DNA from: an uncultured Ignavibacteriaceae bacterium
GTDB taxonomy: Bacteria; Bacteroidota; Ignavibacteria; UBA10030
Assembly (NCBI GenBank): GCA_964581115.1
Contig: CAZOMY010000001.1
Location: 325,190-389,189, forward strand
DNA: 64,000 bases
Reading direction: 5' to 3'
The position numbers and the translations under genes were made by a program. The notes beneath the pieces are model-generated. The model had not been told where the DNA came from and did not search any database. It saw only the letters and a list, made by a program, of their open reading frames with translations. This document shows positions 6,826-64,000 of the stretch, in pieces; position 1 is the stretch's first letter; every line of letters starts with the position of its first letter.

Positions 6826-7740
6826 TCATGCTTCATCGAACCGGGAGAGGTCCATGAACGCCCGGAACCGGTCCTGGATCTTGAGCGTCGATAGATCGCG
6901 CAGGCCGTCGACGCTGAAGCGCTCAACGCAGAAGGATGCCAGCGTGCTGCCGAAGATAACAGCGCGCTTCAAATTGGCATCGGACAGGTCATCTGTCTTG
7001 GCCAACCATCCAATGAACCCCCCGGCGAATGAATCGCCCGCGCCCGTCGGGTCGTACAGATTCTCGAGGGGATAGGCCGGCGCGGAGAAGATCGTCTCTT
7101 CGGTGACAAGCAGGGCACCGTGCTCGCCTTTTTTGATGATGACGATGCGCGGACCCATGCTCCGGATGACGCGGGCCGCTTTGGTGAGGTTCGGTTCGCG
7201 CGTCAATAAACGCGCCTCGGAATCATTTAGAATGAGGACGTCGATGACTTTGAGCGTTTCGCGCAACTCGTTCGGCGTCGACTCGATCCAGTAATTCATC
7301 GTGTCGCCGACAACGAGCCGCGGCTTGCTGATCTGGTCGAGGACCTTGCGCTGGAGACCCGGATGGATGTTGCCAAGACACACATACGCGCTGCGCCGAT
7401 AATTGTCGGGGATCTTCGGGTCGAAGGCGGAGAAGACGTTCAACTCGGTCAGAAGCGTGTCGCGGTTGTTCAGATCATAGTGGTAGCGTCCGGCCCAGCG
7501 AAAGGTCCTGCCCTCTTTCACCACCTGCAATCCGTCGAGGTCGATCCCCCGCTCCTCGAGAAAGCGCATATGCTCCTGAGGAAAGTCTCCGCCGACAACA
7601 CCGACACACCGGATGGGCTTGGTGAAGAAGGACGCCGCCGTCGAGATGTACACCGCCGAGCCGCCCAAGGCGTTCTCGACGCGACCGAACGGCGTCTCGA
7701 CGGAATCCAACGCGACAGAACCGACGACCAACAGACTCAC
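6826..7740 (-). CDS. PfkB-family (ribokinase-like) carbohydrate/nucleoside kinase
   Basis: 304 aa. It has the N-terminal GG-containing sugar-binding region and the C-terminal DPTGAGDSFAGGF motif of ribokinase/PfkB kinases. The start is GTG at 7740. Confidence 0.8.
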   Translation of the reverse strand: MSLLVVGSVALDSVETPFGRVENALGGSAVYISTAASFFTKPIRCVGVVGGDFPQEHMRFLEERGIDLDGLQVVKEGRTFRWAGRYHYDLNNRDTLLTELNVFSAFDPKIPDNYRRSAYVCLGNIHPGLQRKVLDQISKPRLVVGDTMNYWIESTPNELRETLKVIDVLILNDSEARLLTREPNLTKAARVIRSMGPRIVIIKKGEHGALLVTEETIFSAPAYPLENLYDPTGAGDSFAGGFIGWLAKTDDLSDANLKRAVIFGSTLASFCVERFSVDGLRDLSTLKIQDRFRAFMDLSRFDEA

Positions 7741-11916: not shown

Positions 11917-13571
11917 CAGCCTCCCTCGTACTCACCCCACACGCCGCGGAGGACATCAGAGATCTCGCCGACCGTGGCCTTGGCCTCGACGGCCTCAAGG
12001 ATCGACGGCATGAGGTTGCGATGTTCAACGGCAGCGGAACGAACGCCGGCCAGGGCCCGATGCACGGCCGCGACCTCCCGCGCCTGCTTCATCGCCTTGA
12101 GCGATGCCACCTGCCGGGCGCGCGCGCCTTCGTCGACCTTGAGAGTCTCCGGCTTGACCGTTTCTTCCTGCTGGAATCGGTTGACACCGACGATGACCTT
12201 GTCGCCCCGTTCGATGGCCTGTTGGTATTTGTATGCACTGGCGGCGATCTCGGCCTGCATGTAGCCCTGCTCGATCGCACGCACGGCCCCCCCCAACGCG
12301 TCGATGCGGTCCAGATATTCGCGCGCCTTCGTCTCGATCTGATCGGTCAGCGACTCGACGTAGTAGGACCCGCCCAACGGGTCGGGCGTTTCCGTCACGC
12401 CCGATTCAAACCCGATGACCTGCTGCGTGCGCAGCGCCAGACGTGCGGATTCGGCCGTGGGGAGCGCCAGCGCTTCGTCGCGACCGTTGGTGTGCAACGA
12501 CTGGCACCCGCCCAGGACCGCGGCGAGAGCCTGGACCGTCACGCGAACGACGTTGGTATCGATCTGCTGCGCCGCGAGGGTCGCGCCGCCGGTCTGAGCG
12601 TGGAAGCGCAGGCGCTGGCTTTCGGGCGATCTCGCGCCGAAGCGATCACGCATCAATCGCGCCCACAGTCTGCGGGCGGCGCGAAACTTCGCCACCTCCT
12701 CGAAGAAATGATTGTGTGCATTGAAAAAGAACGAGATCTGAGGCGCGATATCGTCTACGGCAAGCCCTCGGTCGACCGCGGCCTGCACGTACGCGACCGC
12801 GTTGGCGATCGTGAAAGCGAGTTCCTGCACCGCCGTCGAGCCCGCCTCGCGAATGTGGTACCCGCTGATGGAGATCGTGTTCCACTTCGGGAGCACGTCG
12901 CGACACCAAGCCATCAGGTCGGTCACGAGCCGAAGGGAGGGAGCGGGAGGATAAATGTACGTCCCGCGCGCCGCATATTCCTTCAGAATGTCGTTCTGCA
13001 CCGTACCGGAAAGCTTGCGGAGGTCGGCTCCCTGCTCTTTCGCAACGGCGACGTACAACGCCAGCAGGGTCGACGCCGTGGCATTGATCGTCATCGAAGT
13101 CGACACATCCTGCAGTCGTATTCCATTGAAGAGGACCCGCATGTCATCGATCGAATCGATCGCAACGCCCACCTTCCCCACTTCGCCCTCGGACATCGGA
13201 TGGTCGGAATCGTAGCCGATCTGCGTCGGCAGGTCGAATGCGACCGAGAGTCCCGTCGTGCCGCTCTGGATAAGATAGCGATAGCGCTCGTTCGATTCCT
13301 CAGCCGTCCCGAAGCCGGCATACTGCCGCATCGTCCACAAACGGCTCCGGTACATCGTCGGATAGACGCCTCGCGTGAAGGGGAACTCGCCGGGAAAACC
13401 CAGGTCCTCGAAGTACGATTGGTCCCGGGGGACATACACCGGATCGATCGGTATGCCGGAGTCGGTCGCGAACGCCGGCTTGCGTTCGCCGCCGCGCTTC
13501 ATTGATGGGCCGCGCGTTTCGCGCTCCCATCGTTCGATGTCGTGCGTTGTGATCTTGTCGATGCCGCTCAT
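11916..13571 (-). CDS. Methylmalonyl-CoA mutase family protein: catalytic (CoA-binding TIM-barrel) subunit with no fused B12-binding domain
   Basis: ~550 aa, with strong MCM N-domain similarity ([45 protein letters not shown]). The start was chosen at ATG 13571 ([15 protein letters not shown]). The ORF extends to 13655, where it would overlap comEC. Confidence 0.85.
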
Positions 13572-43000: not shown

Positions 43001-43048
43001 GGAAAGGGCGAGAAGAAGGCGGTGTCGCACGGTCAACTCACTTGACAA
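40007..43048 (-). CDS. TonB-dependent transporter, SusC/RagA-like (CarboxypepD_reg N-domain, plug, 22-strand barrel)
   Basis: 1013 aa. The signal peptide is followed by KLSGSVVDARTREPLIGANVFLEGTTLGVATDFEGRYTILNIPPGTYTV, a carboxypeptidase-regulatory-like domain. The plug region and a long barrel follow. The C-terminus is the typical ...SVGFTF. The start is TTG at 43048. Confidence 0.88.
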   Translation of the reverse strand: MSSELTVRHRLLLALSVLAVCLGPLQAQGQRGKLSGSVVDARTREPLIGANVFLEGTTLGVATDFEGRYTILNIPPGTYTVIGSMLGYNRVSVRSVEIDIDRTTNIDLQMEDATIEAKEVVVTAERPKIIRDQTSTAQSISETQLKSAPMEGIRGALDLVAGFQKDAQGNYSVRGSGAYEVNYQINGVQQINASTTAPGSFGTSKADNSWKFDVNPLAVQQVQLISGGFSAEYGNAQAGVVKVVSKEGGPRFNGEFRVEMRPPGQYHFGPYVYDRNSYEWQRWGDFDYWIRDLRLIADQLGLNTRASALYNKMYQTGTATGADSAAWSDVVLKEAAWAYDIWLKNHTPADDNALGVYDYRKGMYTRYLIGFGGPLTRDPELLRFFFSGEYRNAPTRLPTAEQNLVFQNYLTNVIYTPVRAHKFKLLAMYQRYRGGIWSGSDDIRWSGLAFSPPGISTKYYIKTDPVRTEETFTQSFNWVYTIDTHSFIELTASHQVESYELPYEYLAGYESARDRLDSLNDASGTVLRQGVWWDGSYFREPFNFSTNYYQYNRTEHASIAVDYTDQATSTNLFKVGIRGYYWDMVNNGVNSSFQANSYLFRSGFAEYYRAYPWLLSAYVQDKMEYEGLVANIGLRAEAYNFQEDVAVDLFNPFYQGTLSNNVRPSTVGDPSTEPSATRTVLMPRLGLSFPIGENTAFRVQYGHFASMPIFAHGLSQRTQSGWTGRGNPNLEPKKTINYEFGVQQVVNEDHRFDVALYYNDRVSQVGLLRVAALTGSADRPRGVLPDNTPLYLYTTFANNAFGSTRGLEITFERISPSRWHYRISYNLSQTTEGNYGPQEQFPEGVTAFASRNFTGEFLSPSDRTHVLRALVQYRLGHDEGAEIAGVRPFANTSVSLTYAAQSGLPFTYVTDFDVQDVLYNRRYPLETSVDVNIVKTLRLLDRDIVLGARIMNLFNNQWLTPMDGQVDRNNWVERGFTVADPGDDPLRLSYIAAPYKAYRNIPRQIFLSVGFTF

Positions 43049-44456
43049 GCATCATCGTACGCGACAAGACCCCTTCGCGGGTCGTAAGCGTGTACGTATA
43101 GGCGCCGCTGGCCAGGCCGCCGCCGTCAAAGAATCGATGGTGGATCCCGGCCGACAGATCGCCATCCACCAGCGCTGCCACGCGCTGTCCGATGACATTG
43201 AAGACCTCCAGTCGGACCGGACCGGCCGACCGCAACGTGAAGGCGATCATGGTCGTCGGGTTGAACGGATTCGGATAGTTCTGGTACAGCGCGAAGTCCA
43301 TCGGAGACTGGGAGGCCGATTCGACGGTGGTCGCGGTCGTGTACTTGAACTGGAAGACCTTCTGCGCCACCGCATCCGAGACATAGGCGGTCAGTCCGTC
43401 GGGCGTCAATCCGACATCGGTGGGGGCGATCATTGGAGCACCGTTCGGGTCTGCGCTGAAGCCATCCTGATTATTCACCGACGGCAGGTCGAACGTTTCC
43501 ATGGCAAGAATGCCGCCTACGTCGAAGGCCTTCACCCATCGCTTCGTCGAATCGATGCCGGCGACCCAGAGGAGGCCGTCCTTGTCCATCGTGATCCCGT
43601 AGCTCACAGCGCTCGAAAAGGTCAGGAGCCCGGTGGCATCGGAGATCCGCGTCCCGCGGTAGGTACCCATCGCCAGTTGCTTGCCGCCTTGCCAGGCCGT
43701 GATACCCCCGGTCGACGTCGAGGCCGCGGAATTGCGGGACGTATAGAAGACGGTGTTCGTATCGGCGTAGTCGCCGTTGGGACGGAGCGCGATGTCTCGA
43801 ATGACGTCCACGCCCCCCGTTTGTTGGCCGCCGGGGTCGAGTTGCGATTCCGACGACCATGCGCCCTTGATGGGAGCTGTGATCGTATTCGTGAAGTTGT
43901 ACGACCTCACCCGCGGACCTGGCACTCCGGCCCCTGCCGATACACCCGCAAATGCGATCGTGTCGCGCGTCAGTGTCACCCCATGGTGAAACGTACCATG
44001 ACCCGACTGGGACGGCAAATAGTAGCCGAATTTCTGCACCAGCATCGTGTCTCCGGTGGGATAGTAGTACATGACACCCACCGTTGCCGGCTTGGTCCGC
44101 TGATACGGTATCGAGGCATTGATGATGATATCTGAACCGATCGAACCGATCCCACGCAACTGGCCGATGTTGCCGGTCAGCGTGTCGGCGTCGCCGTTGA
44201 GGGTGAAGTCGACCAACTTCTTCATCTCAGAGTCATTCGAATCTGCGTACCAGATGGCGTTTCGAGCAGTGGCATTGGTCGCCGTGGTCGAGATCACGTA
44301 CACTCGGCCGGCCGATGTGACGGTCAACAGATATGGTTGCACGTAGGAGGAATCCGTCGCCGGGAACGGGATCGCCTTGATGAAACGCCACTGCGGCTGA
44401 GCTGACGCTGTCAGCACGCTCAACGCCGTGATCATGACTGTCGCAAGGATCTTCAT
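43038..44456 (-). CDS. Secreted hypothetical protein (probable beta-propeller-like fold) with a type-A T9SS C-terminal domain
   Basis: The start was chosen at the verified ATG 44456 (MKILATVMITALSVLTASAQ, a signal peptide). The C-terminus is YQNYPNPFNPTTMIAF...GAYTYTLTTREGVLSRTMMLVK, a canonical type-A CTD. The 3' end overlaps the TBDT start by 11 nt. Confidence 0.7.
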   Translation of the reverse strand: MKILATVMITALSVLTASAQPQWRFIKAIPFPATDSSYVQPYLLTVTSAGRVYVISTTATNATARNAIWYADSNDSEMKKLVDFTLNGDADTLTGNIGQLRGIGSIGSDIIINASIPYQRTKPATVGVMYYYPTGDTMLVQKFGYYLPSQSGHGTFHHGVTLTRDTIAFAGVSAGAGVPGPRVRSYNFTNTITAPIKGAWSSESQLDPGGQQTGGVDVIRDIALRPNGDYADTNTVFYTSRNSAASTSTGGITAWQGGKQLAMGTYRGTRISDATGLLTFSSAVSYGITMDKDGLLWVAGIDSTKRWVKAFDVGGILAMETFDLPSVNNQDGFSADPNGAPMIAPTDVGLTPDGLTAYVSDAVAQKVFQFKYTTATTVESASQSPMDFALYQNYPNPFNPTTMIAFTLRSAGPVRLEVFNVIGQRVAALVDGDLSAGIHHRFFDGGGLASGAYTYTLTTREGVLSRTMMLVK

Positions 44457-44557
44457 GGCACATCTCCTCTTGGATGTGTCACCACCCGACAACCCCGGTG
44501 GCCGACTGATGGTATGGATGGAGAATGACGACTCGTTGCCAGGACAATGTCTGAGGG

Positions 44558-46534
44558 TCATTTCACGAGCACAACACGCCGAAGCAACCGGCGCCCGCTG
44601 TCCGGGGTCGCATCGGCATCCGACACATGAAGTACGATCAGATACACCCCCGTCGCCAACGATCCGGCCTCCCACGTTCGTCGGTGCATTCCCGCTTCGA
44701 AGGTCCCTTCGGCGATGGTCGCGGCAGCCCGTCCAAGCAGATCATACGCCATGATCCGAACGAACGAACGCCGAGAGACATCGAATCGGATCGTCGTCGT
44801 CGAATTGAACGGGTTGGGAAATGGAGGATGCAACTCGAATGAGCGCGGCGCCTCCGGATCGGAGGTGGACATCGAGGTCGGCGTTCCCGGCGAGAGACGC
44901 CGATTGCGCAACAGCATCAGGTCGTCGCCGACCACGTTCTTCCCCGAGCCGATGCCGGCGTTCGTCAGGGTGGCGATGTGCGCCACGACGCCGCCGGGCA
45001 CATACACATCTCCGAGTTTCGTCCAGCCGGCATTCAAGGCGTTGGACTGGTCAACAACGACCGCCTTCGGTGAAGACGCCGTGTCGTGCAAGAGATAGGT
45101 CGCCGTGGGCGTCAGAGCGTTCAATCCTGTCGGGATGTACGCGTAGAGTTCGTAGATCCCCGGCTCGGGGACCGTCGCCGTGTATCGCATCGTATCGGCA
45201 CCCGCAGCGTCGGCGTAGAAGACCGACCCACCCCACGCAGAGACAAAACTGAGTCCGACGAAACCGGAGCGGATGGCCGCCGAGTCGCGCGCAAACACCG
45301 GCGACGGACGCCAGCCGGACGAACGGTGCGGAACGGGAACCTTCGTAGAGTAGACCTGGTCTCGTAGGGAGAACATGTAACCCGCATCGCGAAGGTCATT
45401 GTAATACCACCACGCATGCCCCGTCAGGCCTGCGTTCCGGCTCGTCTGGACGAGATTCACGCCCTCGCTGATCGAGAAGAGGGTCCCGCTCGGCTTGATG
45501 GCGATACCGGCGTTCACCCTCTGCTGCGATGACGAGGAGAGACCGTACAGCGCCGAAGGGATGTAGTTCTGGAGGATCGATGAGGATTGATACATCTGCA
45601 CTTGGGCGGCGTCAAGCTTGCCCTGACCAAGCCACGCCTTCCAATCCTGCAGGTAACTATCGTAGGCAGGATAGGATCCGAGCCCCGATGCATAGTGGCT
45701 CGGCGCGTTTGAAACAACGACGTTCGGGTTCACCGACTTGATCGAATCGTACACATTGGCGTGGAATGAATTCAGCTGGTCGGCGCGCCAACGCTTCCAC
45801 GCGGCATTGGAGCCGTCCGTCGGGGGCGCGCTGCCGGTGGCCGTGGTATACTTGACGACCGACGCGCTGTCATATCCGAAGTCTAAACCGGGGTATCGGA
45901 TGCGGTCGAGCTCGATGCCGTCAACGTCGTATCGTCGCGCGATCTCTTCATGCAATTCCAGCAGGAATGAGCGCGCTTCGTCGTTGTTGTGCGACAACCA
46001 GTAGAAGTAGATGCCTCCCTCTGGATTGCCGATGAGGTCGTTACCTGAGGCATCCTTGCCAAGCCATGACGGATACCGCCCGAATAAGGGACCCTTGGGG
46101 AACCCGGGAAGAGTATAGCCCGTCCACCAACCGGCAAAGCCGTACTCCATCCACGCTTCGATCTCGAGCCCGTTCCGGTGGGCCTCGGCGATGGCTTCCT
46201 GCAAGATGTCTCGACCACCCGCAGCGGGATCAGTTTCATAGCCGGTCTCTCGGAAGAAGATCTCACTCCGGAACAGCGGGAATCCCCGGCTCCAAGCGTT
46301 GAAATAGACGACGTTGAAGTTGGAGGCGGCGATGGTATCCATCGTCCGGGCGATCTCGGCCTTCGTCCAGAAACTACCGCCCGTCCGGGGCGTCACCCAG
46401 ATACCGCGCAACTCTTGTGCGGCCGACAGGTTCCAGAAGGAAGCGAGACTGAGGATGAGGGCCGTCCACGGGATCCGTTTCAAAGCCGGTCGCGGGGGGA
46501 TGCACTGCTTGGGTGACCGTGGAAAGTGCATCAT
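44558..46534 (-). CDS. Glycoside-hydrolase-like family 10 (GHL10, PF02638/YngK-like) secreted protein with a type-A T9SS C-terminal domain
   Basis: A signal peptide is followed by ELRGIWVTP...NFNVVYFNAWSRGFPLFRS, which forms the GHL10 TIM-barrel start. The EAWMEYGF and DVDGIELDRIRYP motifs are present. The C-terminus is HPPFPNPFNSTTTIRF...GVYLIVLH...RRVVLVK. The ATG was verified. The gene overlaps the ROK regulator stop (ATGA). Confidence 0.75.
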   Translation of the reverse strand: MMHFPRSPKQCIPPRPALKRIPWTALILSLASFWNLSAAQELRGIWVTPRTGGSFWTKAEIARTMDTIAASNFNVVYFNAWSRGFPLFRSEIFFRETGYETDPAAGGRDILQEAIAEAHRNGLEIEAWMEYGFAGWWTGYTLPGFPKGPLFGRYPSWLGKDASGNDLIGNPEGGIYFYWLSHNNDEARSFLLELHEEIARRYDVDGIELDRIRYPGLDFGYDSASVVKYTTATGSAPPTDGSNAAWKRWRADQLNSFHANVYDSIKSVNPNVVVSNAPSHYASGLGSYPAYDSYLQDWKAWLGQGKLDAAQVQMYQSSSILQNYIPSALYGLSSSSQQRVNAGIAIKPSGTLFSISEGVNLVQTSRNAGLTGHAWWYYNDLRDAGYMFSLRDQVYSTKVPVPHRSSGWRPSPVFARDSAAIRSGFVGLSFVSAWGGSVFYADAAGADTMRYTATVPEPGIYELYAYIPTGLNALTPTATYLLHDTASSPKAVVVDQSNALNAGWTKLGDVYVPGGVVAHIATLTNAGIGSGKNVVGDDLMLLRNRRLSPGTPTSMSTSDPEAPRSFELHPPFPNPFNSTTTIRFDVSRRSFVRIMAYDLLGRAAATIAEGTFEAGMHRRTWEAGSLATGVYLIVLHVSDADATPDSGRRLLRRVVLVK

Positions 46535-47757
46535 CCTTTCAGCTCCGGAATGACCCCGTTGACGCGCGCGGGCTTGAAGAGATCATATAGAACCAGGCCG
46601 ACAGCACCCAAAAGAACGCCGTCGCTCCGAAGCTGTGCCGAACGGACCGTCACCGCCTTGGCCGGCTCGGGAAGATGGTCACGGCTCAGCTTCTCCTGGA
46701 CGAGGGCGGCCACCTCCGGCTCGGCAGCGATCGAGCCGCCAAGAACGATCATGGCCGGATTCAGCAAGTTGATGATGCCGATGCAGACGGCGGCCACCGC
46801 CGAGGTGGCTTCCTCGATGATCTTCTTGGCGAGCCCATCTCCGGCTCGAACTGCCCGCACGATCGCCTCGACCGTGGCGACCTCCGGGGAGCCTCCATGC
46901 GATCGATAGGCCATCATGAGCGATGAGTCGCCGAGCAATGCTCCGAGATCATACTGACCGTGATACAGCAACGGGAATCGGTCGGGCCTGGCAAGCTCAT
47001 AACCCACTTCATTGTAGCCGATCTCTCCCGCACTCGAGGTGCGGCCGTGCAATATCTTTCCGTCGACGATGATTCCCGTGCCGATGCCGTCCCCCACCCA
47101 GAAGAAGACCTGGTCGGCGATCTGCCGTCCTGCGCCGAAGAGGTACTCGGCAAGCGTCATGGCTTTGACATCATTCTCGACAAAGACCGGCAGTCCAAGC
47201 GCATGTCCGAACACCGTCTTGAGGTTGGTTCCCTTCCACCCTTTCAGTGTGTCGGCCACTCTCAGAATGCCGGTCTCACGGTCGATGATACCAGGCAATC
47301 CGACACCCAACCCGACGCTTCGGTCAAAGAGGGTTGGAGATTCCTTGCGCCAGGTTTCGAGATGGTCCAGGATACGACCGATCACCGTCTTGGGCGGATC
47401 GCCGGGTGTGATGTCGAACGCATCGCGCTGCAGGATGTTCGCGTTCATGTCGGTCGCGACGATCTGGACAGAACGCATGCGAATGTCGACGCCAAGGACG
47501 GTGCCGGCTCTTGGATTGAAACGCAGGAGCTCACGCTTGCGTCCCCCTCGGCTTGTGGAGGTACCCTCGCCGACCGGCTCAAGGAACCCACCGTCCAGGA
47601 ATCTGCCGACGATCTCGGTGACTGTGGTCTTCGAGAGGGAGCAACGCTGGGAGATCTCGGTGCGCGAGATGGGACTCGAGTCCCGGACGAGTCGGAGAAT
47701 GCGGTACTCGTTCGGTTCGTCGAAGGCGCTTCTTCGTTCGGCCAGTCTACGCCACAC
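46531..47757 (-). CDS. ROK-family transcriptional regulator (NagC/Mlc/XylR-like: wHTH plus sugar-kinase-like sensor domain)
   Basis: The N-terminal wHTH is ILRLVRDSSPISRTEISQRCSLSKTTVTEIVGRFLDGGFL. The ROK body has LGVDI, GWKGTNL, GDGIGTGIIVDG and a C.C-lacking regulator-type tail. The start is GTG at 47757. Confidence 0.8.
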   Translation of the reverse strand: MWRRLAERRSAFDEPNEYRILRLVRDSSPISRTEISQRCSLSKTTVTEIVGRFLDGGFLEPVGEGTSTSRGGRKRELLRFNPRAGTVLGVDIRMRSVQIVATDMNANILQRDAFDITPGDPPKTVIGRILDHLETWRKESPTLFDRSVGLGVGLPGIIDRETGILRVADTLKGWKGTNLKTVFGHALGLPVFVENDVKAMTLAEYLFGAGRQIADQVFFWVGDGIGTGIIVDGKILHGRTSSAGEIGYNEVGYELARPDRFPLLYHGQYDLGALLGDSSLMMAYRSHGGSPEVATVEAIVRAVRAGDGLAKKIIEEATSAVAAVCIGIINLLNPAMIVLGGSIAAEPEVAALVQEKLSRDHLPEPAKAVTVRSAQLRSDGVLLGAVGLVLYDLFKPARVNGVIPELKG

Positions 47758-56331: not shown

Positions 56332-56372
56332 CTGCCTTCGAGGCACATAACGCCCCTTCCTCACAGCCGACA

Positions 56373-58631
56373 CTACATCCTCCAGCGCACTCCGCCATAC
56401 ATCATCCGCCCCTGCACCGGTCCCCAGATGATCGAACTGTCGAAGTAAGGACTGGATGGATCGGCGGCCGAGATGATCGGATCACCCTGCCGGAAGTCCA
56501 GGAGATTCTCGACGCCCACATACAGATCCAGGTTCAGCAACAGCGTTCGGGTCACCTGACCATTGACCAGGAAGTAGGAAGGCGATGACGAGGGCCGGCG
56601 ATACGGCAGCGGACTCGCCGACGTCTCCGGCAGCCGCTTCGGTCCGAACCACGAGACCGTCAGGTCGTAGGCCATACGTCCGGAACCGTCGTCGTCAGGT
56701 TGCGTGGTGTAGGCCAGATTGACGAACGCCCGATGTTTCGCCACGTACGGCCGATCGCGAAGCTGGCCGTCGATCGTCTGCCGCACGTCCAGAAAGCGGT
56801 ACGCGGTGCGCACTTCGAACCGCTCCAACGGCTGGATGTTCAATTCGGCCTGTGCGCTATTCGAGAACGAAGAACCCGTCAGCGGCTGGAAGACGACCAT
56901 GCGCGCATCGCGGTCGAGATTCACGACCAGTTGATCGTCAAACGTCGTCCGATGCAGGTCGATCGTGAACGTCCCTTCGCGGCCATTCACCGTCACATAG
57001 CGCGTGGCGCTGAGGCCGATATTCCAGCCCGTCTCTCGATGGTACGCCATGCCCGGAGCCATTCCTTCGAGCGCCGGCGTCCGGGAACTCGCAAACAACG
57101 CGATGTTCTCCGCATAGATGTTCGCCGTCCTCTGACCCCGCCCCGCCGATAGGCGAAGCGTCCAATTGATGTCGGGCGCATAGCGCACATGCAGACGCGG
57201 GGAGATGAACGAGCCGAACAGATTGTGCCGGTCGCCACGCAGACCCGCAACGACCGAAAGGTCCTCGCCATGCGAGTAGGTGTACTCGACGAAGGCACCG
57301 GGCACCCGTTCGATCCGTGCATGGTCGGATCCGAACACCCGCTCATCGTAGTCATCCACAAGCAGACTAAGGCCGCCTCGCACCCGCTGGACGCCGGGTT
57401 CGATCTCCGCGTCGTAGAGCAGATTCAGGTATCCCGTCCGTTCTCTCCCGGAATACTCGCGGTGCTGGAGCGAAGTGGAGGTCCGATGATCCGCGGTGGA
57501 CCACTGAAGTCCGATGCTTCGCCCTTCGCCCTCGAAGACGTAGCCGGTCTTGCCGGAGATCCGCAATTGGCTTCCCCGCATACGATAGCGATACTGCAGC
57601 GGATCGGCCCCAAGCGCCAGATGGTCCAGATCGATCCCATGCATGGTGCCATTGCGCTTCTCATCAGATGTGTACTGCACGATCATCTGGCCCTCGACAC
57701 CCTCGAAGTCGTGCAGAGAGAATCGCTGCAGGACATGCGCCGCAGTACCGATCGGGGCGTCCAGAAACCGGTCGCCGTTTCGGTCCATCGACACGCGGCG
57801 AGTGTCCATGTTCACCATGGTCAGCGAAGACAGGTGCTCGCTGATCGGAGTCCGGAGGTTTCCGTTCAGCTCGAATCGTTGGTCATCGGTGCCGAACATC
57901 GTCAGGTAGACGCGCTGCTCGGCCTCGTTCCACGGTTTCCGGTACTCGACGTTGATCTGCCCGGTGATCGATTCGTAGCCGTTGGCCACCGAACCGACCC
58001 CCTTCGACACCTGGATGTTCTCGATCCAAGAGCCCGGGATGTACGTGAGGCCCACGTTGGAGGCAAGCCCCCGCACCGCCGGCATGTTCTCCAGCGTGAT
58101 CTGCGAATAGGTTCCGGCAAGTCCAAGCATCTCGATCTGCCGGGTTCCGGTGACGGCGTCGGTGAACGAGACATCGACCGACGGGTTCGTCTCGAAGCTC
58201 TCGGAGAGATTGCAGCAGGCCGCCTTGAAGAGCTCCTTCTCCGTCATCACGACCGTATTCGTCGTCGCCCGGTATTCTATGAAACTGGGCGCCCGTTGTC
58301 CGACGACGTTGACGGCATCGACCTCCGTCGCCTCGGAGACAAGCGTGATCCGCAGGACGCGCGGCTCGGCCACGGTCAGCGTGTCGGGCCTGAACCCGAC
58401 GCTGCTGATGACCAGCCGACCGCCGCCATCTTGGAATGCCAACTCAAACCGTCCCGCCGTATCGACCATCGTCCCGACCCGCGAACCGAGCCAGTAGACC
58501 GACGCGCCGACAACCGGGCGGAGTTGCCCCTCCTCGGTCCGTTCCACCACTCTCCCCTGCACGATCCCTGTCGATTGGGCGAAGAGCAGCGCGGGCACGA
58601 GGAGAGCGCTGAACAACCATGCGCTTCTCAT
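56373..58631 (-). CDS. TonB-dependent receptor (CarboxypepD_reg N-domain, plug, barrel)
   Basis: 752 aa. The signal peptide is MRSAWLFSALLVPALLFAQS. It is followed by GIVQGRVVERTEEGQLRPVVGASVYWLG, a plug domain (DAVNVVGQRAPS) and a barrel. The ATG was verified. Confidence 0.88.
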   Translation of the reverse strand: MRSAWLFSALLVPALLFAQSTGIVQGRVVERTEEGQLRPVVGASVYWLGSRVGTMVDTAGRFELAFQDGGGRLVISSVGFRPDTLTVAEPRVLRITLVSEATEVDAVNVVGQRAPSFIEYRATTNTVVMTEKELFKAACCNLSESFETNPSVDVSFTDAVTGTRQIEMLGLAGTYSQITLENMPAVRGLASNVGLTYIPGSWIENIQVSKGVGSVANGYESITGQINVEYRKPWNEAEQRVYLTMFGTDDQRFELNGNLRTPISEHLSSLTMVNMDTRRVSMDRNGDRFLDAPIGTAAHVLQRFSLHDFEGVEGQMIVQYTSDEKRNGTMHGIDLDHLALGADPLQYRYRMRGSQLRISGKTGYVFEGEGRSIGLQWSTADHRTSTSLQHREYSGRERTGYLNLLYDAEIEPGVQRVRGGLSLLVDDYDERVFGSDHARIERVPGAFVEYTYSHGEDLSVVAGLRGDRHNLFGSFISPRLHVRYAPDINWTLRLSAGRGQRTANIYAENIALFASSRTPALEGMAPGMAYHRETGWNIGLSATRYVTVNGREGTFTIDLHRTTFDDQLVVNLDRDARMVVFQPLTGSSFSNSAQAELNIQPLERFEVRTAYRFLDVRQTIDGQLRDRPYVAKHRAFVNLAYTTQPDDDGSGRMAYDLTVSWFGPKRLPETSASPLPYRRPSSSPSYFLVNGQVTRTLLLNLDLYVGVENLLDFRQGDPIISAADPSSPYFDSSIIWGPVQGRMMYGGVRWRM

Positions 58632-58643
58632 GACCGTCGCTCC

Positions 58644-59003
58644 TTAGTGGGTGGAATCGTTGTCGCGATAGAGGCAGCACCCCGGCAACGCGTCATAGAC
58701 CGAGTCCGGGGCCGAGAATTTCGGCGTGTCGTGTCCGACGGCGGCCAGCCGTTGTTGCAGCGAATCGACGGTGATGGCCGACGGACGATACGAAACGGTG
58801 AGCATCTTGGTCTGTTTGTTCCAAGAGGCCTTGTCGACCTCCTTGATCTTCATCGTCTTCTCGATGCGGTTCTTGCACATATTGCAGTTGCCGAAGACTT
58901 TGAAGGATGTTTCGACGACCTTCGTCTCCTGGGCAGCAACGACGAACGAGGCAACGAGCAGGGCGACAGTGACAGAAAGGATCGTTCGCATGATATTCCT
59001 CAT
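58644..59003 (-). CDS. Secreted heavy-metal-associated (HMA) domain protein
   Basis: A signal peptide is followed by an HMA-like fold, FKVFGNCNMCKNRIEKTMKIKEVDKASWNKQTKMLTVSY (a ferredoxin-like metal-binding domain with a C..C pair). A C-terminal GCC cysteine pair follows. ATGs at 59003 and 58991 were both verified as possible starts. Confidence 0.6.
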   Translation of the reverse strand: MRNIMRTILSVTVALLVASFVVAAQETKVVETSFKVFGNCNMCKNRIEKTMKIKEVDKASWNKQTKMLTVSYRPSAITVDSLQQRLAAVGHDTPKFSAPDSVYDALPGCCLYRDNDSTH

Positions 59004-59081
59004 GTTGAGTTTGATCGTTTGAGAATAGCACAACGCGACACCGTGCGGACGCACGCTGCCCTCAGACACGATCGGGACGAC

Positions 59082-59462
59082 TCAATTGAGGAACGAGCAG
59101 AAGAGAATGGTGGCCGGTACGGCCCGTGGGGGCGGAGAATCGGCTTGGGTGAGGGAGACGAGCGCCGGTTCGATGGCTGGCGCCTTGTCGACGAACGGGT
59201 AGACGACGTGCGAGGCCTCCAGCGTCACCTTGGGAGCGACGGCTGAGGCGAGTTGACCGTCATCCAACTGAAAGGTGGCAAGGTCAACCGTGCAGCAGCG
59301 GTCGGCTGGGTCCATAAGGTCAGCGCAGCCGCATGGATCTTCCTGGGTGACCGGCGCAAAATTGGCGTCCGTCGTCCCGCCGCATGAATGATGCAGGACG
59401 TTGACACCGATCGCCAGCCCTAGATAGATGGCCAAGAACGCTATGGAGAAGACTCGCCGCAC
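59082..59462 (-). CDS. Small Cys/His-rich membrane-anchored hypothetical protein
   Basis: 126 aa. An N-terminal TM (IAFLAIYLGLAIGVNVL) is followed by HHSCGG...CGCAD...DRCC. The start is GTG at 59462. It is the first gene of the operon with the HMA protein and the TonB receptor. It is weakly supported as a real gene. Confidence 0.4.
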   Translation of the reverse strand: MRRVFSIAFLAIYLGLAIGVNVLHHSCGGTTDANFAPVTQEDPCGCADLMDPADRCCTVDLATFQLDDGQLASAVAPKVTLEASHVVYPFVDKAPAIEPALVSLTQADSPPPRAVPATILFCSFLN

Positions 59463-59667
59463 GGATGTAATGTACGTGCCACTGGCGAAGGATGCAATGA
59501 ATGCAGAACTTGCGCGCCTGGCGTTGAGTTCCTTCGGCCCCCAACGCAGAAGCCCCCGGGGGTTCCCGAGAGCTTCATTTTACATCTTTCGTCTTGAATC
59601 GTACATCTTCTCACGGAAATGTTGTTTGCTGCTTCGCAGCATTGGTATAGGGCCTCCGGCTATCTTT

Positions 59668-59730
59668 CATCTTACATCTTACATCTTACATCTTACATCT
59701 TACATCTCACATCTTACATCTTACATTTCT
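59668..59730. repeat. Heptanucleotide microsatellite (CATCTTA)n, about 8 copies with one CATCTCA variant
   Basis: Direct reading of the sequence: catcttacatcttacatcttacatcttacatcttacatctcacatcttacatcttacatttct. The repeat lies in the intergenic region between the BNR/T9SS gene end and the Cys-rich/HMA/TonB operon start. Confidence 0.9.
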
Positions 59731-59734
59731 CCCG

Positions 59735-62700
59735 CTATTTCATCAGAACCATCTTGTTCGTCCTGACAAACCTCACCCCATCCGCTCCGACCGCTTCGAT
59801 CCGGAAGATGTAGAGCCCCGACGCCATGCCCGATGCATCCCAGCGAATTTGATGCTGACCAGCGCTCAACGAACCGTTCACCAACGTCGCCACCTCGCGT
59901 CCCAGCTGGTCGTAGATCTTCAGGCTGACACGTCCCTCCAGTGGCAAGGAAAATCGGATCGTCGTTGAGGGATTGAACGGGTTGGGGTAGTTATGTGCCA
60001 ATTCGAAGTCCGTCGGTTGTGAGTGGTCGACCTGCTCCACCGACGTCACTCGATCGAGCTGGCGAGCATAGAGATCAGCTCCGTAGACACCATAGATCAC
60101 ATTGCCCGAGATCCGCAGGTCCGAGGCTCCGAACAGCGGAAGCCCTTCCCTGACATCGGTCCACGTGACCCCCTTGTTGTTTGTCCGCCAGGTCCCGTAG
60201 CGGTTCGACACGATGACGGCGTTATCACTGATGGCCATCGCCTTGACCGTTTCATACTGTATGCCCTCCCCGCGCTCCATCCAAGATTGACCGCCGTCCG
60301 TTGAGACATAGAATCCCCCAGAGCCCGAGAAAACGCCTTTTGAGCCGAATGCACCGACATAGATCGTGTCGGCACGGACGATGATCCCACCCCAAGCGGT
60401 CGTGGGGCCAGCACTCACGGCAAGTCCTGTCCAGCCTGTTTCACCAGGTGTCCAGCGGTAAACGCCGGATAGATACGCAAACAACGTCGAACCCGAAAGT
60501 GTCACGGCCTTGGCATCTCCGGTCGCGATACCATCGCTTGGGGTGGCTCCCCAAGTTAAACCGAGGTCGGTGGAACGTCGCACACCTCCTCCAACGGTCC
60601 CTGCCAGGACCGTTGAACCCGACACGGCCAGGTCGTTGACGTCGGCGTTGATGCCGTAGGTTTTCTCTTCCCACGTGACGCCGGCATCGCTCGAACGATA
60701 CACGCCAGAACTGGCTGTACCGACGAACCAGATCCCGCCCCCGGTCTCGACGTCCCTCACGACACGAGAGAAGCTACCGATCGATCCTTGATTTGTCAGA
60801 GCCCATGAGCCTCCACCATTTGTCGAACGGAACACTCCAAAGCCATCACTGCCGACCAAGATCGTCGAACCGTCGACCGACATTTTCGTGAGCTTGAGCG
60901 CTCTCAATCCCCTCGAAGAACGGCTCCAAGATGCTCCTCCGTCCGTCGAACGATAGACCCCACCGCGCTCCACTCCGCTCGTGGCCGCGTACCATATGCC
61001 GTCCTTCGATGTCAGTTGCTGGACATACTTGTCGACCAATCCCGCATCTGACTTCACCCATGTCGCCCCGTCATCCGTTGACCGAAAGACTCCCGAAGCC
61101 TCATAGCCGAGCAGGTACGATATTCCGTTCGACCGCAGATCGTTGACCGTCGCCCCTGACGCACCTGTACTGTTCTGCCAGCTTGATCCACCATCGGTGG
61201 AGTACTTTGGCGAGGAATCGCCTCTCACGAAAGTTGTCCCGTTCGATGCCAGGAATTTCACGGAGCTGGTTCCCACGCTCGTCACCTGCACCCACATCGA
61301 TGAGCCGGCTGACAATTGGTAGAGCCCGAATGCCGTGCCTGCAAAGATTTCTTGGCCGTACTTTGCGAGGGTGTAGACGATGTTCGCCGATCCGGCGGGG
61401 ATTCCGGTCGAGAATCCCGTCCAACTCGAGCCACCAGATATGCTGCGAAAGATGCCATTGCTCGTCGCAAGATAGATCGTATCGCCCGATGCCACCATGG
61501 CGTTGATGCCGGATGCCGTGATACCACTGTTCACCGACGTCCACGTCTCGCCATGGTCCGTCGAGCGGGCCAATGCATTCGACGTCGTCGAACCATGATA
61601 GAGATGGCTGTTGACGACGAAGAGCTTTCCCGGATACGTGATCGGGCCCTTCGGCAGGAGCTGCCACGATGCCCCTGCGTCGGTCGACCGATACAGGCCC
61701 CGCCACGTCGTTGCCACGACGGCCGACGCTGTGGAAACGATCCCGTCGATCTCGCCGGCATCCGGTCCCGCGATCAAGGTCCACGAAGTACCGGCAACGG
61801 GAGGCCCTGACGTTCCTCCACCATCACCAGTCTCTCCCCCTCCCGATCCAATGGCCTGGAAGCTGAACGTTGTGGAATAAGGGGAGAGAATCACGCCTTC
61901 TTTCGCCCGAACGCGCCAGTAGTAGGTCTCTCCGGCCGTGAAGGGCCCGAAGGATACCGTTCCGGAATTTCCCGGCCGATTTGTGTCAGCAAAGACCACG
62001 TTCTGGAACAGGGAATCACGCGCCACTTGGATCTCAAATCTTGTCGAGAGCAAGGAGCCAGGTGTCCAGTTGAAGGTCACGGATGCCGCTCCCGCCGTAT
62101 CGCCGTTCAGCGGACGAACCAGATTCGGTCGCGGGTAGAGGTACTCGTATACAACTCCCACAGGTGTTGTGGTACCCGACACGGTCTCTGTGCCGTTCGA
62201 GAGCATCCAGGCTTCCGTCGGTCCAGCGAAGGCGAGGGCGCGTGGAGCGAAGTTGTTTGGAGCGAGACTCATCTGATACCAGGTGCGACCAAAATCCATC
62301 GTTCGGTAGATCCGGGAGCCAATGGCCACACCAAGGCCGACGGACGAGAACGAGACCGCCGTCAGGTTGGTGGACGTGCTGTTGAGAGTCGCGGGCTGCC
62401 ACGATACCCCGCCATCGGTCGTTCTTAGGATCCTCCCCGAAGATGTGAGCACGATGCCGGAATCGGGATCGAGCACATGCACATCCGTGATATGGCCGGG
62501 AGTTGGCAACCGGGTCGTGCTCCAATTCGCTCCGCCGTCGGTTGTTCGGAGGATGATCGAAGTGTCGTTCAGCGACTGATCCGTAAGCCACACGTGCTGA
62601 TGATCGAATACGCTGACCCGGTAGGTTCGTGATCCCTGTGGCACCGACACGGCATCCCATGATGCACCCGCATTGGTGCTGCGATACAGGTATCCGATCG

Positions 62701-63157
62701 GCAATTGACTCGTACCGCCGTACCCCACGGCGAAGGCCACCGATGAGCTCGCACGGCTGAATTCGAGGTCGGTGATATTCATGATCTCCGCCTGAGTGCC
62801 CGCCGACCACGACTGACCACCGTTCGTCGAACGAAGGAATTTGGCCGTTCCATCCTGGAAGGCTATCAGGGTCCCTGGAGCCGCAGGATGCGATGCCACG
62901 GCGTTCCCTTGAGACAGACCTGTCAGGTTCTCGAATCCGGCACCGATCATCCAAGGAGGGTCCATCGGTGTGTTCCGGATCTGGACAGGATACGCAATGC
63001 CCGGCGTCGTTGCTCCGATGATGAGGTTCGTGCGAGCACCCGTAAACTCGATGTCAGAGAATGTGAGTCCATACTCTCTGTGACGTTCGGTGAATTGCGC
63101 CTGTGCAAAGGAGACAAGAAACAGCAGCACGACGAAAAGTTGGATTGTCTTCAGCAT
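59735..63157 (-). CDS. Large secreted BNR/Asp-box repeat protein (sialidase-like/Ycf48-like beta-propellers) with a type-A T9SS C-terminal domain
   Basis: 1140 aa. The signal peptide is MLKTIQLFVVLLFLVSFAQAQ. About 16 Asp-box motifs S/T-x-D/N-x-G-x-S/T-W are present (STNGGQSW, STNAGASW, TTDGGANW, STDAGASW, STDHGETW, STDGGSSW and others). The C-terminus is HNYPNPFNPSTTIRF...GLYIFRIEAVGADGVRFVRTNKMVLMK. Confidence 0.8.
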   Translation of the reverse strand: MLKTIQLFVVLLFLVSFAQAQFTERHREYGLTFSDIEFTGARTNLIIGATTPGIAYPVQIRNTPMDPPWMIGAGFENLTGLSQGNAVASHPAAPGTLIAFQDGTAKFLRSTNGGQSWSAGTQAEIMNITDLEFSRASSSVAFAVGYGGTSQLPIGYLYRSTNAGASWDAVSVPQGSRTYRVSVFDHQHVWLTDQSLNDTSIILRTTDGGANWSTTRLPTPGHITDVHVLDPDSGIVLTSSGRILRTTDGGVSWQPATLNSTSTNLTAVSFSSVGLGVAIGSRIYRTMDFGRTWYQMSLAPNNFAPRALAFAGPTEAWMLSNGTETVSGTTTPVGVVYEYLYPRPNLVRPLNGDTAGAASVTFNWTPGSLLSTRFEIQVARDSLFQNVVFADTNRPGNSGTVSFGPFTAGETYYWRVRAKEGVILSPYSTTFSFQAIGSGGGETGDGGGTSGPPVAGTSWTLIAGPDAGEIDGIVSTASAVVATTWRGLYRSTDAGASWQLLPKGPITYPGKLFVVNSHLYHGSTTSNALARSTDHGETWTSVNSGITASGINAMVASGDTIYLATSNGIFRSISGGSSWTGFSTGIPAGSANIVYTLAKYGQEIFAGTAFGLYQLSAGSSMWVQVTSVGTSSVKFLASNGTTFVRGDSSPKYSTDGGSSWQNSTGASGATVNDLRSNGISYLLGYEASGVFRSTDDGATWVKSDAGLVDKYVQQLTSKDGIWYAATSGVERGGVYRSTDGGASWSRSSRGLRALKLTKMSVDGSTILVGSDGFGVFRSTNGGGSWALTNQGSIGSFSRVVRDVETGGGIWFVGTASSGVYRSSDAGVTWEEKTYGINADVNDLAVSGSTVLAGTVGGGVRRSTDLGLTWGATPSDGIATGDAKAVTLSGSTLFAYLSGVYRWTPGETGWTGLAVSAGPTTAWGGIIVRADTIYVGAFGSKGVFSGSGGFYVSTDGGQSWMERGEGIQYETVKAMAISDNAVIVSNRYGTWRTNNKGVTWTDVREGLPLFGASDLRISGNVIYGVYGADLYARQLDRVTSVEQVDHSQPTDFELAHNYPNPFNPSTTIRFSLPLEGRVSLKIYDQLGREVATLVNGSLSAGQHQIRWDASGMASGLYIFRIEAVGADGVRFVRTNKMVLMK

Positions 63158-63247: not shown

Positions 63248-63278
63248 CTGAAGCCCCAGGCGTTCCCGAGGGCTTCAG
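63248..63278 (-). terminator. Stem-loop downstream of the partial T9SS gene; a possible terminator but lacking a U-tract
   Basis: CTGAAGCCC-(13-nt loop)-GGGCTTCAG is a perfect 9-bp stem. No T-run follows on the minus strand. A homologous but degenerate structure lies at about 59549..59576, after the paralog. Confidence 0.3.
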
Positions 63279-63318
63279 TCGCACATCTTTCATCTCCCCT
63301 CTTTCTTCTTTCCTCGGA

Positions 63319-64000
63319 CTACTTCATGAGAACCATCTTATTCGTCCTCACGAACCGAGCGCCATCCGCTCCGACCGCCTCGATGCGGAAGAAGTAGAGC
63401 CCCGATGCCATACCCGAGGCCTCCCAGCGGGCCTCGTGCATCCCCGCGCCCAGCGACCCGTTGACGAGCGTTGACACCTCACGCCCGAGCTGATCGTAGA
63501 TCGTCACGGACACACGGCTTTCCGTGGGCAGTCCGAACCGGATCACCGTCGACGGATTGAACGGATTCGGATAGTTCTGCGCAACATCGAACTCCGCCGG
63601 CACCGCCAGATCCAGTTCGGTGACCGATGTCGTAAAGTTACCCCAGACCGTCCGTGCCTGCTGGGCCGCGGACTGCAGTTGCGTGAGATCATCCGCCGCC
63701 AGGAAGGCGATGCCGAATCTCAACGTATCGCCCGGCGCCAGCGCGAACGGTCCGGCGGTCAGCTGATTGCGCGTGTCGCCAGCACCGACGGGGACCGCCG
63801 GAAAGCTTGTCACATTCGCCGTCGATCGGACAAACTGGTTGTCGTTCCCGATCAAGAAGACGGCATGACCCGCCACCGGATGACTCAACAGGGCAAAGCC
63901 ATAATAGGCGGGGTCCGAACCTCCGCCCTGCTCGAACGCGTACGTCAGACCGCGCGAAGCGTCATAACCACCCAGGTTTGCGCCCGAATTGCCGATGTCG
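63319..64000 (-). CDS. Secreted protein with a type-A T9SS C-terminal domain (paralog of the 59735..63157 CTD); 5' part lies beyond the window
   Basis: The C-terminus QNYPNPFNPSTVIRF...GLYFFRIEAVGADGARFVRTNKMVLMK is near-identical to the neighbouring gene CTD. I translated the minus-strand frame by hand and it remains open with no stop up to 64000 (…DIGNSGANLGGYDASRGLTYAFEQGGGSDPAYYGFALLSHPVAGH…). The gene therefore continues off-window. The track start at 63888 is only a TTG codon. Confidence 0.65.
   Translation of the reverse strand, partial: DIGNSGANLGGYDASRGLTYAFEQGGGSDPAYYGFALLSHPVAGHAVFLIGNDNQFVRSTANVTSFPAVPVGAGDTRNQLTAGPFALAPGDTLRFGIAFLAADDLTQLQSAAQQARTVWGNFTTSVTELDLAVPAEFDVAQNYPNPFNPSTVIRFGLPTESRVSVTIYDQLGREVSTLVNGSLGAGMHEARWEASGMASGLYFFRIEAVGADGARFVRTNKMVLMK

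Follow-up and report, generated by a model that had tools for sequence, protein, structure and literature searches.

A length-variable heptanucleotide microsatellite in the 3' tail of a predicted type IX secretion cargo gene of an uncultured Ignavibacteriaceae bacterium

Introduction

In a 64,000-nucleotide stretch of DNA from an uncultured Ignavibacteriaceae bacterium (contig CAZOMY010000001.1 of assembly GCA_964581115.1, positions 325,190 to 389,189; this whole stretch is called the window), an array of the heptanucleotide CATCTTA lies between a predicted cargo gene of the type IX secretion system (T9SS) and an operon encoding a DUF8199 protein, an HMA-like protein, and a TonB-dependent receptor. 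An earlier note on this DNA had described the array as a slipped-strand expansion and had proposed that it could switch or tune the expression of the operon, which it regarded as a metal-uptake operon. The locus raises the question of which of its two neighbors the array belongs to and whether its length has consequences. We conclude, with a probability of roughly 60%, that the array is a slippage-prone heptanucleotide microsatellite in the 3' untranslated tail of the T9SS cargo gene and that its changes in length are near-neutral.

A single heptanucleotide array follows the stop codon of a T9SS cargo gene

The two features in question are as follows.

59661..59726, minus strand: heptanucleotide array, identified with Tandem Repeats Finder (TRF), by sequence reading, and by pattern statistics
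59735..63157, minus strand: gene for a BNR/Sortilin-Vps10 repeat protein of 1140 amino acids with a T9SS C-terminal sorting domain, identified with Pfam

Pfam assigns BNR, Sortilin-Vps10, and Por_Secre_tail domains to the product of 59735..63157. Because this BNR/Sortilin-Vps10 protein carries Por_Secre_tail, the gene is, judged by its predicted domains, a T9SS cargo gene. With TRF, one strong array of period 7 and unit ATCTTAC was returned at 59662..59726 (score 116, 9.3 copies, 94% matches), and no other period-7 array of comparable strength within the window. On the plus strand, the array comprises 8 full units at 59668..59723, namely five of CATCTTA, one of CATCTCA, and two of CATCTTA, with degenerate units at both ends. 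Direct reading and TRF therefore bear out the eight units and the single variant counted previously, as well as the placement of the array in the 3' flank of the T9SS gene, where it begins 8 nt past the stop codon. The variant unit occupies 59703..59709, and the perfect 5-unit run occupies 59668..59702. The minus strand, which is the mRNA-sense strand of all neighboring genes, reads AATG (TAAGATG)2 TGAGATG (TAAGATG)5 AAAGATA.

A two-unit probe allowing at most 2 mismatches matched 9 times against 0.06 expected, a number reached in none of 100 shuffles, and for the single heptamer 10 occurrences compare with 2.0 expected; the GC content of the window is 61.6%. The sense strand of the array contains TAA or TGA in all three frames. 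Folded alone, the array RNA has a minimum free energy of 0.0 and no self-structure, and it holds only 1 C per 74 nt. No Rfam family reached its gathering threshold in the window, the region 59000..60000 gave only chance-level matches (all with E >= 3), and no tRNAs were found in the window. Consisting of head-to-tail 7-nt units beyond chance in non-coding DNA, the array is a heptanucleotide simple sequence repeat (SSR) of the long SSR (LSSR) or variable-number tandem repeat class.

The perfect run differs in length among near-identical strains

We compared the array with the same locus on other metagenomic contigs, designated here by locus numbers. The protein encoded by 59735..63157 was found in identical form on contigs from the Joint Genome Institute (JGI), and the contigs with this identical cargo protein and a 5-unit run differ from the window by 2–3 single-nucleotide polymorphisms (SNPs) per 6.8 kb. 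The first contigs were all of the 5-unit type, and a uniform copy number was considered until a look-up through the 117-amino acid DUF8199 protein yielded 3- and 6-unit alleles, which ruled it out. The perfect run thus comprises 5 units in the window and at L003, L004, and L005, 3 units at L195, and 6 units at L197. The 3-unit allele lies on a 52-kb contig from sample 3300037465, with flank mismatches of 0/901 nt and 1/1554 nt. The 6-unit contig comes from sample 3300037501, which also holds the 5-unit contig L005, so that two alleles are present in one sample.

The length-variant contigs differ by at most 3 SNPs per 6.8 kb, and all of the length change falls within the longest perfect run, as slippage predicts. 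At least 2 length-change events are required, on backgrounds about 5 SNPs per 6.8 kb apart, which makes the tract far more prone to mutation than any one base. Comparison across strains, as the earlier note had advised, accordingly gave a variable repeat number within the population, as in phase-variable loci, and the alleles of 3, 5, or 6 units show that the longest perfect run still gains and loses units at present.

Several contigs end at or near the array: the Logan contigs L001 and L002 inside it, L197 at its first unit, and L005 141 nt past the stop codon. The 35-nt perfect run exceeds the 31-mer that we assume the Logan assembler to use. Given this assumed k and two coexisting alleles, the array is a practical assembly break point.

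The array is embedded in a conserved 3'-tail module

Read from the TAG stop of the cargo gene, the tail consists, in this order, of an 8-nt spacer, the array, and four further elements, all on the minus strand.

59727..59734, minus strand: 8-nt spacer CGGGAGAA between the TAG stop and the array, from the sequence; the L189 ortholog has CGGGAGA here
59650..59660, minus strand: block GCCGGAGGCCC directly 3' of the array, identical in three sister species
59627..59641, minus strand: mini-hairpin TGCTGCGAAGCAGCA with a GCGAAGC core, from the alignment fold (pair 107-115)
59577..59612, minus strand: degenerate heptamer tract ATGTACG ATTCAAG ACGAAAG ATGTAAA..., adjoining the hairpin, with a probe match at 59576..59589
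59549..59576, minus strand: 12-bp GC-rich hairpin GAAGCTCTCGGG-AACC-CCCGGGGGCTTC, from folds and conserved across related species

The terminal hairpin has a GC-rich stem followed by UGCGUUGG, with no U-run, and is missing from the minus-strand list of the scan. It lies about 85 nt from the GTG at 59462 and, by its position and fold, probably marks the 3' end of the transcript.

Close relatives were found by exact-protein look-ups; when metagenomes were scanned with the cargo protein's C-terminal half, relatives at the level of the C-terminal domain (CTD) alone were returned. The closest relatives carry the source labels "Bacteroidetes bacterium" and "Ignavibacteriaceae bacterium". For the cargo protein itself a single close relative is known here, P0002, encoded at locus L189, with 81% identity in the best local alignment and 60% query coverage. 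Behind its TAG stop follow CGGGAGA, ten mixed GATGTAA/GATGTGA units, GATAGCCGGAGGCCC, a mini-hairpin TGCCGCGAAGCGGCA, degenerate heptamers, and the hairpin, and the gene 3' of this array-hairpin module differs from that in the window. Although the two cargo genes are identical at only 52% of four-fold degenerate sites, their tails share 91% identity over the array and 93% over the terminal hairpin; past the hairpin, identity falls to 47%, which is about background.

At L190, found through DUF8199 orthologs, the tail module stands behind a Cohesin-type gene and ahead of the DUF8199 operon, and the BNR gene is absent. The position of the array is taken there by AATGATG TAAGAAG TGAGAAG AAAGATA, about 3–4 degenerate units. 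The window, L189, and L190 are roughly equidistant, with 82–87% amino acid identity in the shared CTD region. At the more distant L191, the operon is preceded by a short tail with the same hairpin type, and at L192 and L193 by an unrelated gene end.

RNAalifold supported both hairpins. L189 and L190 share the mini-hairpin TGCCGCGAAGCGGCA, which carries one compensatory change relative to the window (U-A to C-G) around the GCGAAGC core, and in the terminal hairpin pair 174-191 is U-G, C-G, or U-A depending on the sequence. The GCGAAGC core is an unusually stable hairpin motif.

These alignments place the array inside a conserved 3'-flank module. With 9 units in the window, 10 at L189, and about 3–4 degenerate ones at L190, they also show that a short proto-array of imperfect units, as kept at L190, was expanded to 9–10 units in the window species and at L189. 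Together with the strain alleles, this agrees with the lineage-limited slipped-strand expansion put forward previously. Judged by its distribution among the relatives, the array travels with the T9SS gene tail and not with the operon.

All six array differences between the window and L189 toggle UAA and UGA, probably as one ancestral polymorphism spread via slippage. A second lineage-specific heptamer expansion was observed at L192 (3283-3360), where about 11 AAGTATG/GAGTAGG units directly follow the stop codon of the TonB receptor gene; the same site holds 2–3 units at L191 (~7090-7120) and none in the window (~56340-56372).

The downstream operon has its own control region

The operon downstream of the tail comprises the following features.

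59463..59538, minus strand: upstream block of the DUF8199 operon, with TTGCAT, a 17-nt spacer, TACATT, 6 nt, and GTG, from a four-species alignment
59082..59462, minus strand: DUF8199 protein, 126 amino acids from GTG, with a signal or transmembrane segment and Cys motifs
58644..59069, minus strand: HMA-like protein with a CNMC motif, from a sub-threshold match to Pfam HMA
56373..58631, minus strand: TonB-dependent receptor of 752 amino acids, identified with Pfam

The JGI annotation gives the DUF8199 protein 117 amino acids and a TTG start at 59435, and the match of the HMA-like protein to Pfam HMA (20.6 bits) is under the cut-off of 24.8. We aligned the 100 nt 5' of the DUF8199 start from four species. 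The last ~50 nt are gap-free and read TTGC(A/T)T, a 17-nt spacer, TA(C/T)NTT, 6 nt, and (G/A)TG; in the window, the -35-like TTGCAT lies at 59492..59497 and the -10-like TACATT at 59469..59474 on the minus strand. The block is found at 3915-4020 in L190, 3905-4020 in L191, and 95-210 in L192, and it is kept in L192 and L193, where no T9SS gene, hairpin, or array precedes it. It looks like a sigma-70-type promoter that would have transcription begin on the start codon or right beside it, and this suggests that the DUF8199 mRNA is leaderless or nearly so. The array lies about 165 bp upstream of the likely -35 element. Because the control region sits beyond the hairpin and adjoins the start codon, the alignment shows the array to be no part of the conserved control region of the DUF8199/HMA-like/TonB operon.

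The earlier note had placed the array ~200–260 bp upstream of the operon start, and we indeed found 200–264 nt between the array and the GTG at 59462. That the array is a phase-variation or tuning switch of this operon, acting through promoter geometry or 5'-untranslated region (UTR) structure as at Haemophilus influenzae hmw1A, is nevertheless improbable. Such a switch would fit an array that lies on the operon's strand at this distance and whose copy number varies among near-identical strains and even within one sample, and read-through into the operon is possible because the intervening hairpin has no U-tract. UUACAUC stands immediately before the GTG, and the predicted duplex of the array RNA with the GTG region reaches -32.1 kcal/mol against a background of -23.8 +/- 5, a marginal difference (p about 0.045). 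The centroid fold, however, does not contain this pairing, and relatives do not conserve it; the UUACAUC complement is not maintained in L190–L192. The perfect run is short (3–6 units), the operon is present at L190 with only about 3–4 degenerate units, and the -35/-10-like pair 6 nt from the start codon is kept array-free in L191–L193. The conserved hairpin separates the array from the operon and ortholog similarity ends there, and at L189 the array precedes an unrelated gene. With an operon block that is conserved without the array, these data do not support the proposed switch. Loci of the hmw1A type have their repeat within the controlled gene's promoter, 5' UTR, or reading frame; from the sequence, the array here appears to lie neither between promoter elements nor in a 5' UTR, nor within such a reading frame. 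Separating the repeat from the metal-uptake operon prevents a false annotation of phase variation.

(TAAGATG)n arrays in other genomes favor sense sites next to stop codons

An exact scan for (TAAGATG)3 in one genome per species returned at least 119 loci (L006–L124). The counts in this section hold among the matches listed; 121 arrays, oriented as TAAGATG, entered the orientation tests, with open reading frames (ORFs) of at least 90 amino acids standing in for genes. Roughly three quarters of the matches are from Bacteroidota, an approximate figure, and a few more are from other phyla of the Fibrobacterota–Chlorobiota–Bacteroidota (FCB) group. Several genomes carry arrays at more than one locus, such as MAG-78 JAHDHV01 with seven.

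Of the upstream neighbor genes, 66 run in sense and 34 in antisense to the array (p = 0.002), and intergenic regions that hold arrays are more often convergent than divergent (24 versus 9, p = 0.014). A sense stop codon lies at most 20 nt before the array in 26 of the 121 cases, against 7 in the mirror orientation (p = 0.001), and a further 27 arrays themselves supply the upstream stop codon. The window array fits this pattern, since it is sense-oriented and begins 8 nt past a stop. Canonical terminators were not enriched 3' of such arrays (5 in sense versus 4 in the mirror control).

A start-stop mini-ORF in each unit (AUG-UAA or AUG-UGA) was considered and rejected, as other genomes carry unit variants that break the AUG or the stop codon. 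We likewise rejected a general link to T9SS: only 2 of 58 genes upstream of arrays have CTD-like ends, the array is absent past ~45 unrelated gene ends of the type ...TNKMVLMK, and it is absent from the 3' flanks of three other CTD-like genes in the window (10039-11931, 43038-44741, and 44558-46582, minus strand). We found no paper on TAAGATG arrays or on a stop-adjacent bias, in a literature search whose incomplete coverage makes this weak evidence of absence.

Several arrays had individual features. At L020, L119, L124, and ~24 others, the upstream ORF ends on a TAA of the array, which gives repeat-encoded C-termini (...DVRCKM or ...KM). At L010, L026, L042, L057, L080, L095, L104, L112, L113, and L114, TAAGATG units are followed ~10–40 nt on by inverted CATCTTA units; such pairs are long potential hairpins, many of them between convergent genes, and the reverse order, CATCTTA then TAAGATG, was not seen among the ~10 pairs listed. 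The last array ATG apparently starts the next gene at L084 (~181-270), a lipoprotein-like one beginning MKKKISLLAFCS..., and at L089 (array ~4291-4353, minus strand), a GMP-synthase-like one beginning MKDEILIVDFGSQYTQ....

Arrays at apparently orthologous positions in different species comprise 14 and 9 units at L041 and L099, 7 and 9+7 at L064 and L115, and 4 and 4 at L101 and L106, and such arrays of differing unit number would therefore persist across speciation while their length changes. L118 (5878-6168), in the Ignavibacteriaceae metagenome-assembled genome CAYYOV01 that also holds L191, is a compound tract of ~290 bp in which several distinct heptamer arrays succeed one another, 15 CATCTTA units among them. 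At L102 (CAZGBP010000050.1, labeled Bifidobacteriaceae and probably mis-binned), a T9SS CTD-like end, ...GTKQMVIQK, is followed by an array and a terminator.

A probably near-neutral microsatellite and its alternatives

In the mechanism that we propose, replication slippage on the perfect run would generate the length alleles, and the transcribed tract would be an unstructured, purine-rich, and nearly C-free stretch of mRNA with a stop codon in every frame. Changes in length would most likely be neutral or nearly so, with at most a modest effect on the length of the 3' UTR or on the spacing of the terminal hairpin of the cargo transcript. Some of our data weigh against this interpretation. The alleles are counted at the level of assemblies made from short metagenome reads, and we infer both the transcript 3' end, at a hairpin that lacks a U-tract, and the transcription start at GTG from DNA sequence. 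Outside the repeat, the module is conserved beyond the level of synonymous sites; the tail is therefore functional somehow, and the array might play a part in this. Despite ongoing slippage, the array has 7–10 units in two species, a narrow range that could reflect a constraint on length. Nor would the sense, stop-adjacent bias seen in other genomes be predicted by a purely neutral, orientation-blind process.

Alternatively, the array might be a functional RNA element in the 3' UTR of the cargo gene. It would then either present a series of 7-nt sites to a single-strand RNA-binding protein (cold-shock, S1, or RRM type) or serve as a spacer, free of C and rich in stops, that affects termination, ribosome release, or mRNA decay, and the number of units would tune its strength. 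An RNA-level role of this kind in the cargo-gene tail is possible from the features of the sequence, and we regard this alternative as rather unlikely. The tract is sense-oriented, unstructured, and nearly C-free, within a module that is conserved from stop to hairpin above the level of synonymous sites. Arrays elsewhere, among the matches listed, prefer sense stop-adjacent sites and convergent regions, and their inverted pairs are always TAAGATG...CATCTTA. CspB reportedly binds to repeats of a heptamer with one protein on each unit, as discussed in PMC4679880. L190, however, retains the module with about 3–4 degenerate units, and a long array is therefore not required; in other genomes, variant units have lost the AUG as well as the stop codon, and therefore no motif is strictly kept. 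Neither the terminator counts given above nor the Rfam search favors an RNA element, and the orientation bias could be mutational, for example through transcription-linked slippage or purine loading. The broader proposal that purine-rich arrays of the TAAGATG type form a Bacteroidota- or FCB-wide class of sense-strand elements, set against stop codons and active as RNA, is more doubtful still. Possible roles for such a class are a row of binding sites for a single-strand RNA-binding protein or a C-free, stop-rich spacer for ribosome release, Rho loading, or 3'-end decay. If the proposal were true, changes in unit number between strains would tune the fate of T9SS cargo mRNA or the read-through into the TonB-receptor operon.

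It is very improbable that the copy-number differences are assembly artefacts and that the array is fixed at 9 units in the population. That every allele derives from short reads and that contigs break at or near the array (L001/L002, L197, and L005) would be expected of artefacts. The whole array (49–70 nt), though, is shorter than a typical read, the 3-unit allele lies in the middle of its 52-kb contig between near-perfect flanks, and the sister species has a unit count of its own; the coincidence of two alleles in one sample with contig breaks is what a real bubble in the assembly graph would give. Close to negligible is the chance that the region is protein-coding, through either the plus strand ORF 59428..59766 or the following ORF.

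59611-59670, minus strand: 19-codon sense ORF MKDSRRPYTNAAKQQTTFP from the last array ATG, with a counterpart at ~10117-10176 of L189, MKDSRRPNTTAAKRQTTLS

The plus strand ORFs cross the array only because CATCTTA repeats are stop-free in every frame, and the 19-amino acid ORF has the same start and length at L189. Against coding, strains and species differ by indels of 7 and 14 nt, which would put the plus strand ORF 59428-59766 (112 amino acids) out of frame and rule it out as a gene; the plus strand ORF 59619-59813 (64 amino acids) does not merit annotation either. Changes in the 19-amino acid ORF are 3 synonymous to 5 non-synonymous, and the paired changes GCT>GCC and CAG>CGG preserve the RNA mini-hairpin and not the peptide.

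Taken as a microsatellite, the array is a well-documented case of an actively slipping heptamer in an uncultured high-GC bacterium of Bacteroidota/Ignavibacteria-like type. It may serve as a strain marker and, as a site of contig breaks, calls for caution in assembly. Among the by-products, the most interesting is the orientation bias across Bacteroidota. It is a cheap and testable lead, since sense (TAAGATG)n arrays that abut stop codons may reflect how transcript 3' ends are built in this phylum, which is not known to use Shine-Dalgarno initiation.

Comparison with known heptamer repeats

The array belongs to an already known class of bacterial heptanucleotide SSRs. As summarized in PMC4679880 and PMC4692102, Mrazek (2007) found heptanucleotide repeats to be the most abundant class of long SSRs in many bacterial genomes and enriched between genes, and proposed polymerase slippage as their origin. 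The accounts consulted of these LSSRs, of the cyanobacterial short tandemly repeated repetitive (STRR) sequences, and of the Xanthomonas GGGAATC and Nostoc GGGGA(T/C)T repeats describe the same intergenic, imperfect tandem heptamers, with lengths that differ between close relatives, inverted pairs in related cases, and a proposed origin by slippage. As far as those accounts go, the present array differs in its unit (TAAGATG/CATCTTA), its high-GC Bacteroidota/Ignavibacteria-like host, its single occurrence in the window, and its conserved 3'-flank module.

Beggiatoaceae, Cyanobacteria, and five Bacteroidetes carry TAACTGA repeats, for the most part a short way upstream of start codons (MacGregor 2015, PMC4679880). 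Like the window array, they are intergenic heptamers with forward-frame stops, a strand preference relative to genes, no self-structure, and Bacteroidetes hosts, and for them, as for the window array, a post-transcriptional role has been suggested and not demonstrated (PMC4679880). They differ in unit and in lying mostly a few nt upstream of starts, whereas most of the (TAAGATG)n arrays listed lie just past stops, as does the window array, whose TAAGATG units come 8 nt after a stop and have the next start 200 nt away.

The (ATCTTTC)n repeats of H. influenzae hmw1A/hmw2A are transcribed in the 5' UTR, where a long hairpin with a G-rich arm is cut by RNase III and underlies phase variation (PMC12721329). 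They resemble the window array in their 7-nt unit (ATCTTTC and ATCTTAC are one base apart), in population copy-number variation, and in their association with a surface or secreted protein locus. Natural hmw1A arrays, however, have at least 11 units and lie in the 5' UTR, compared with a perfect run of 3–6 units past a stop codon here; in addition, the sense transcript in the window carries the purine-rich strand and has no conserved complementary arm. The TTTTGAT heptads of Vibrio cholerae ctxAB, as far as the bioRxiv account consulted describes them (10.1101/2021.05.14.444153), share with our locus an array upstream of an operon and a strain-variable copy number. According to that account, they differ in being regulator binding sites immediately upstream of the promoter, whereas the window array lies on the far side of a hairpin, ~165 bp upstream of the likely -35 element, and orthologous operons lack it.

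The upstream C-terminal domain gene and its flank

Upstream of the cargo gene, a second CTD gene is cut by the edge of the window.

63319..64000, minus strand: Cohesin/Laminin_G_3 T9SS cargo gene truncated at the window edge, 3' end only, identified with Pfam
63283..63318, minus strand: degenerate period-7 purine tract AGGAAAG AAGAAAG AGGGGAG ATGAAAG ATGTGCG in the 3' flank of this gene
63250..63276, minus strand: hairpin GAAGCCCTCGGGAACGCCTGGGGCTTC, paralogous to 59549..59576, from folds and a hairpin-type search

The earlier note had treated this gene as a paralog whose 3' flank holds a single unexpanded unit. The paralogy is correct for the shared T9SS C-terminal domain (76% identity) and stops there: the Cohesin/Laminin_G_3 and BNR genes are homologous over their last 103 amino acids only. 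The quoted flank sequence (63283..63318) is likewise correct, and it consists of about 5 degenerate period-7 units instead of one. By eye and from the comparison with L190, its clearest homolog is the hairpin-adjacent tract 59577..59612. MAFFT instead matched it to the perfect array's 3' portion and left the hairpins unaligned. T9SS C-terminal-domain-like gene ends number five in the 64 kb of the window.

Within the window, the hairpin type of 59549..59576 occurs at two sites only, the second being 63250..63276. GAAGCCC...GGGCTTC hairpins without a U-tract recur past several unrelated genes in the clade (window 59549-59576 and 63250-63276, L190 ~3887-3915, and L191 ~7160-7190), and they may represent either a small repeated element or the 3'-end hairpin that is usual in this clade.

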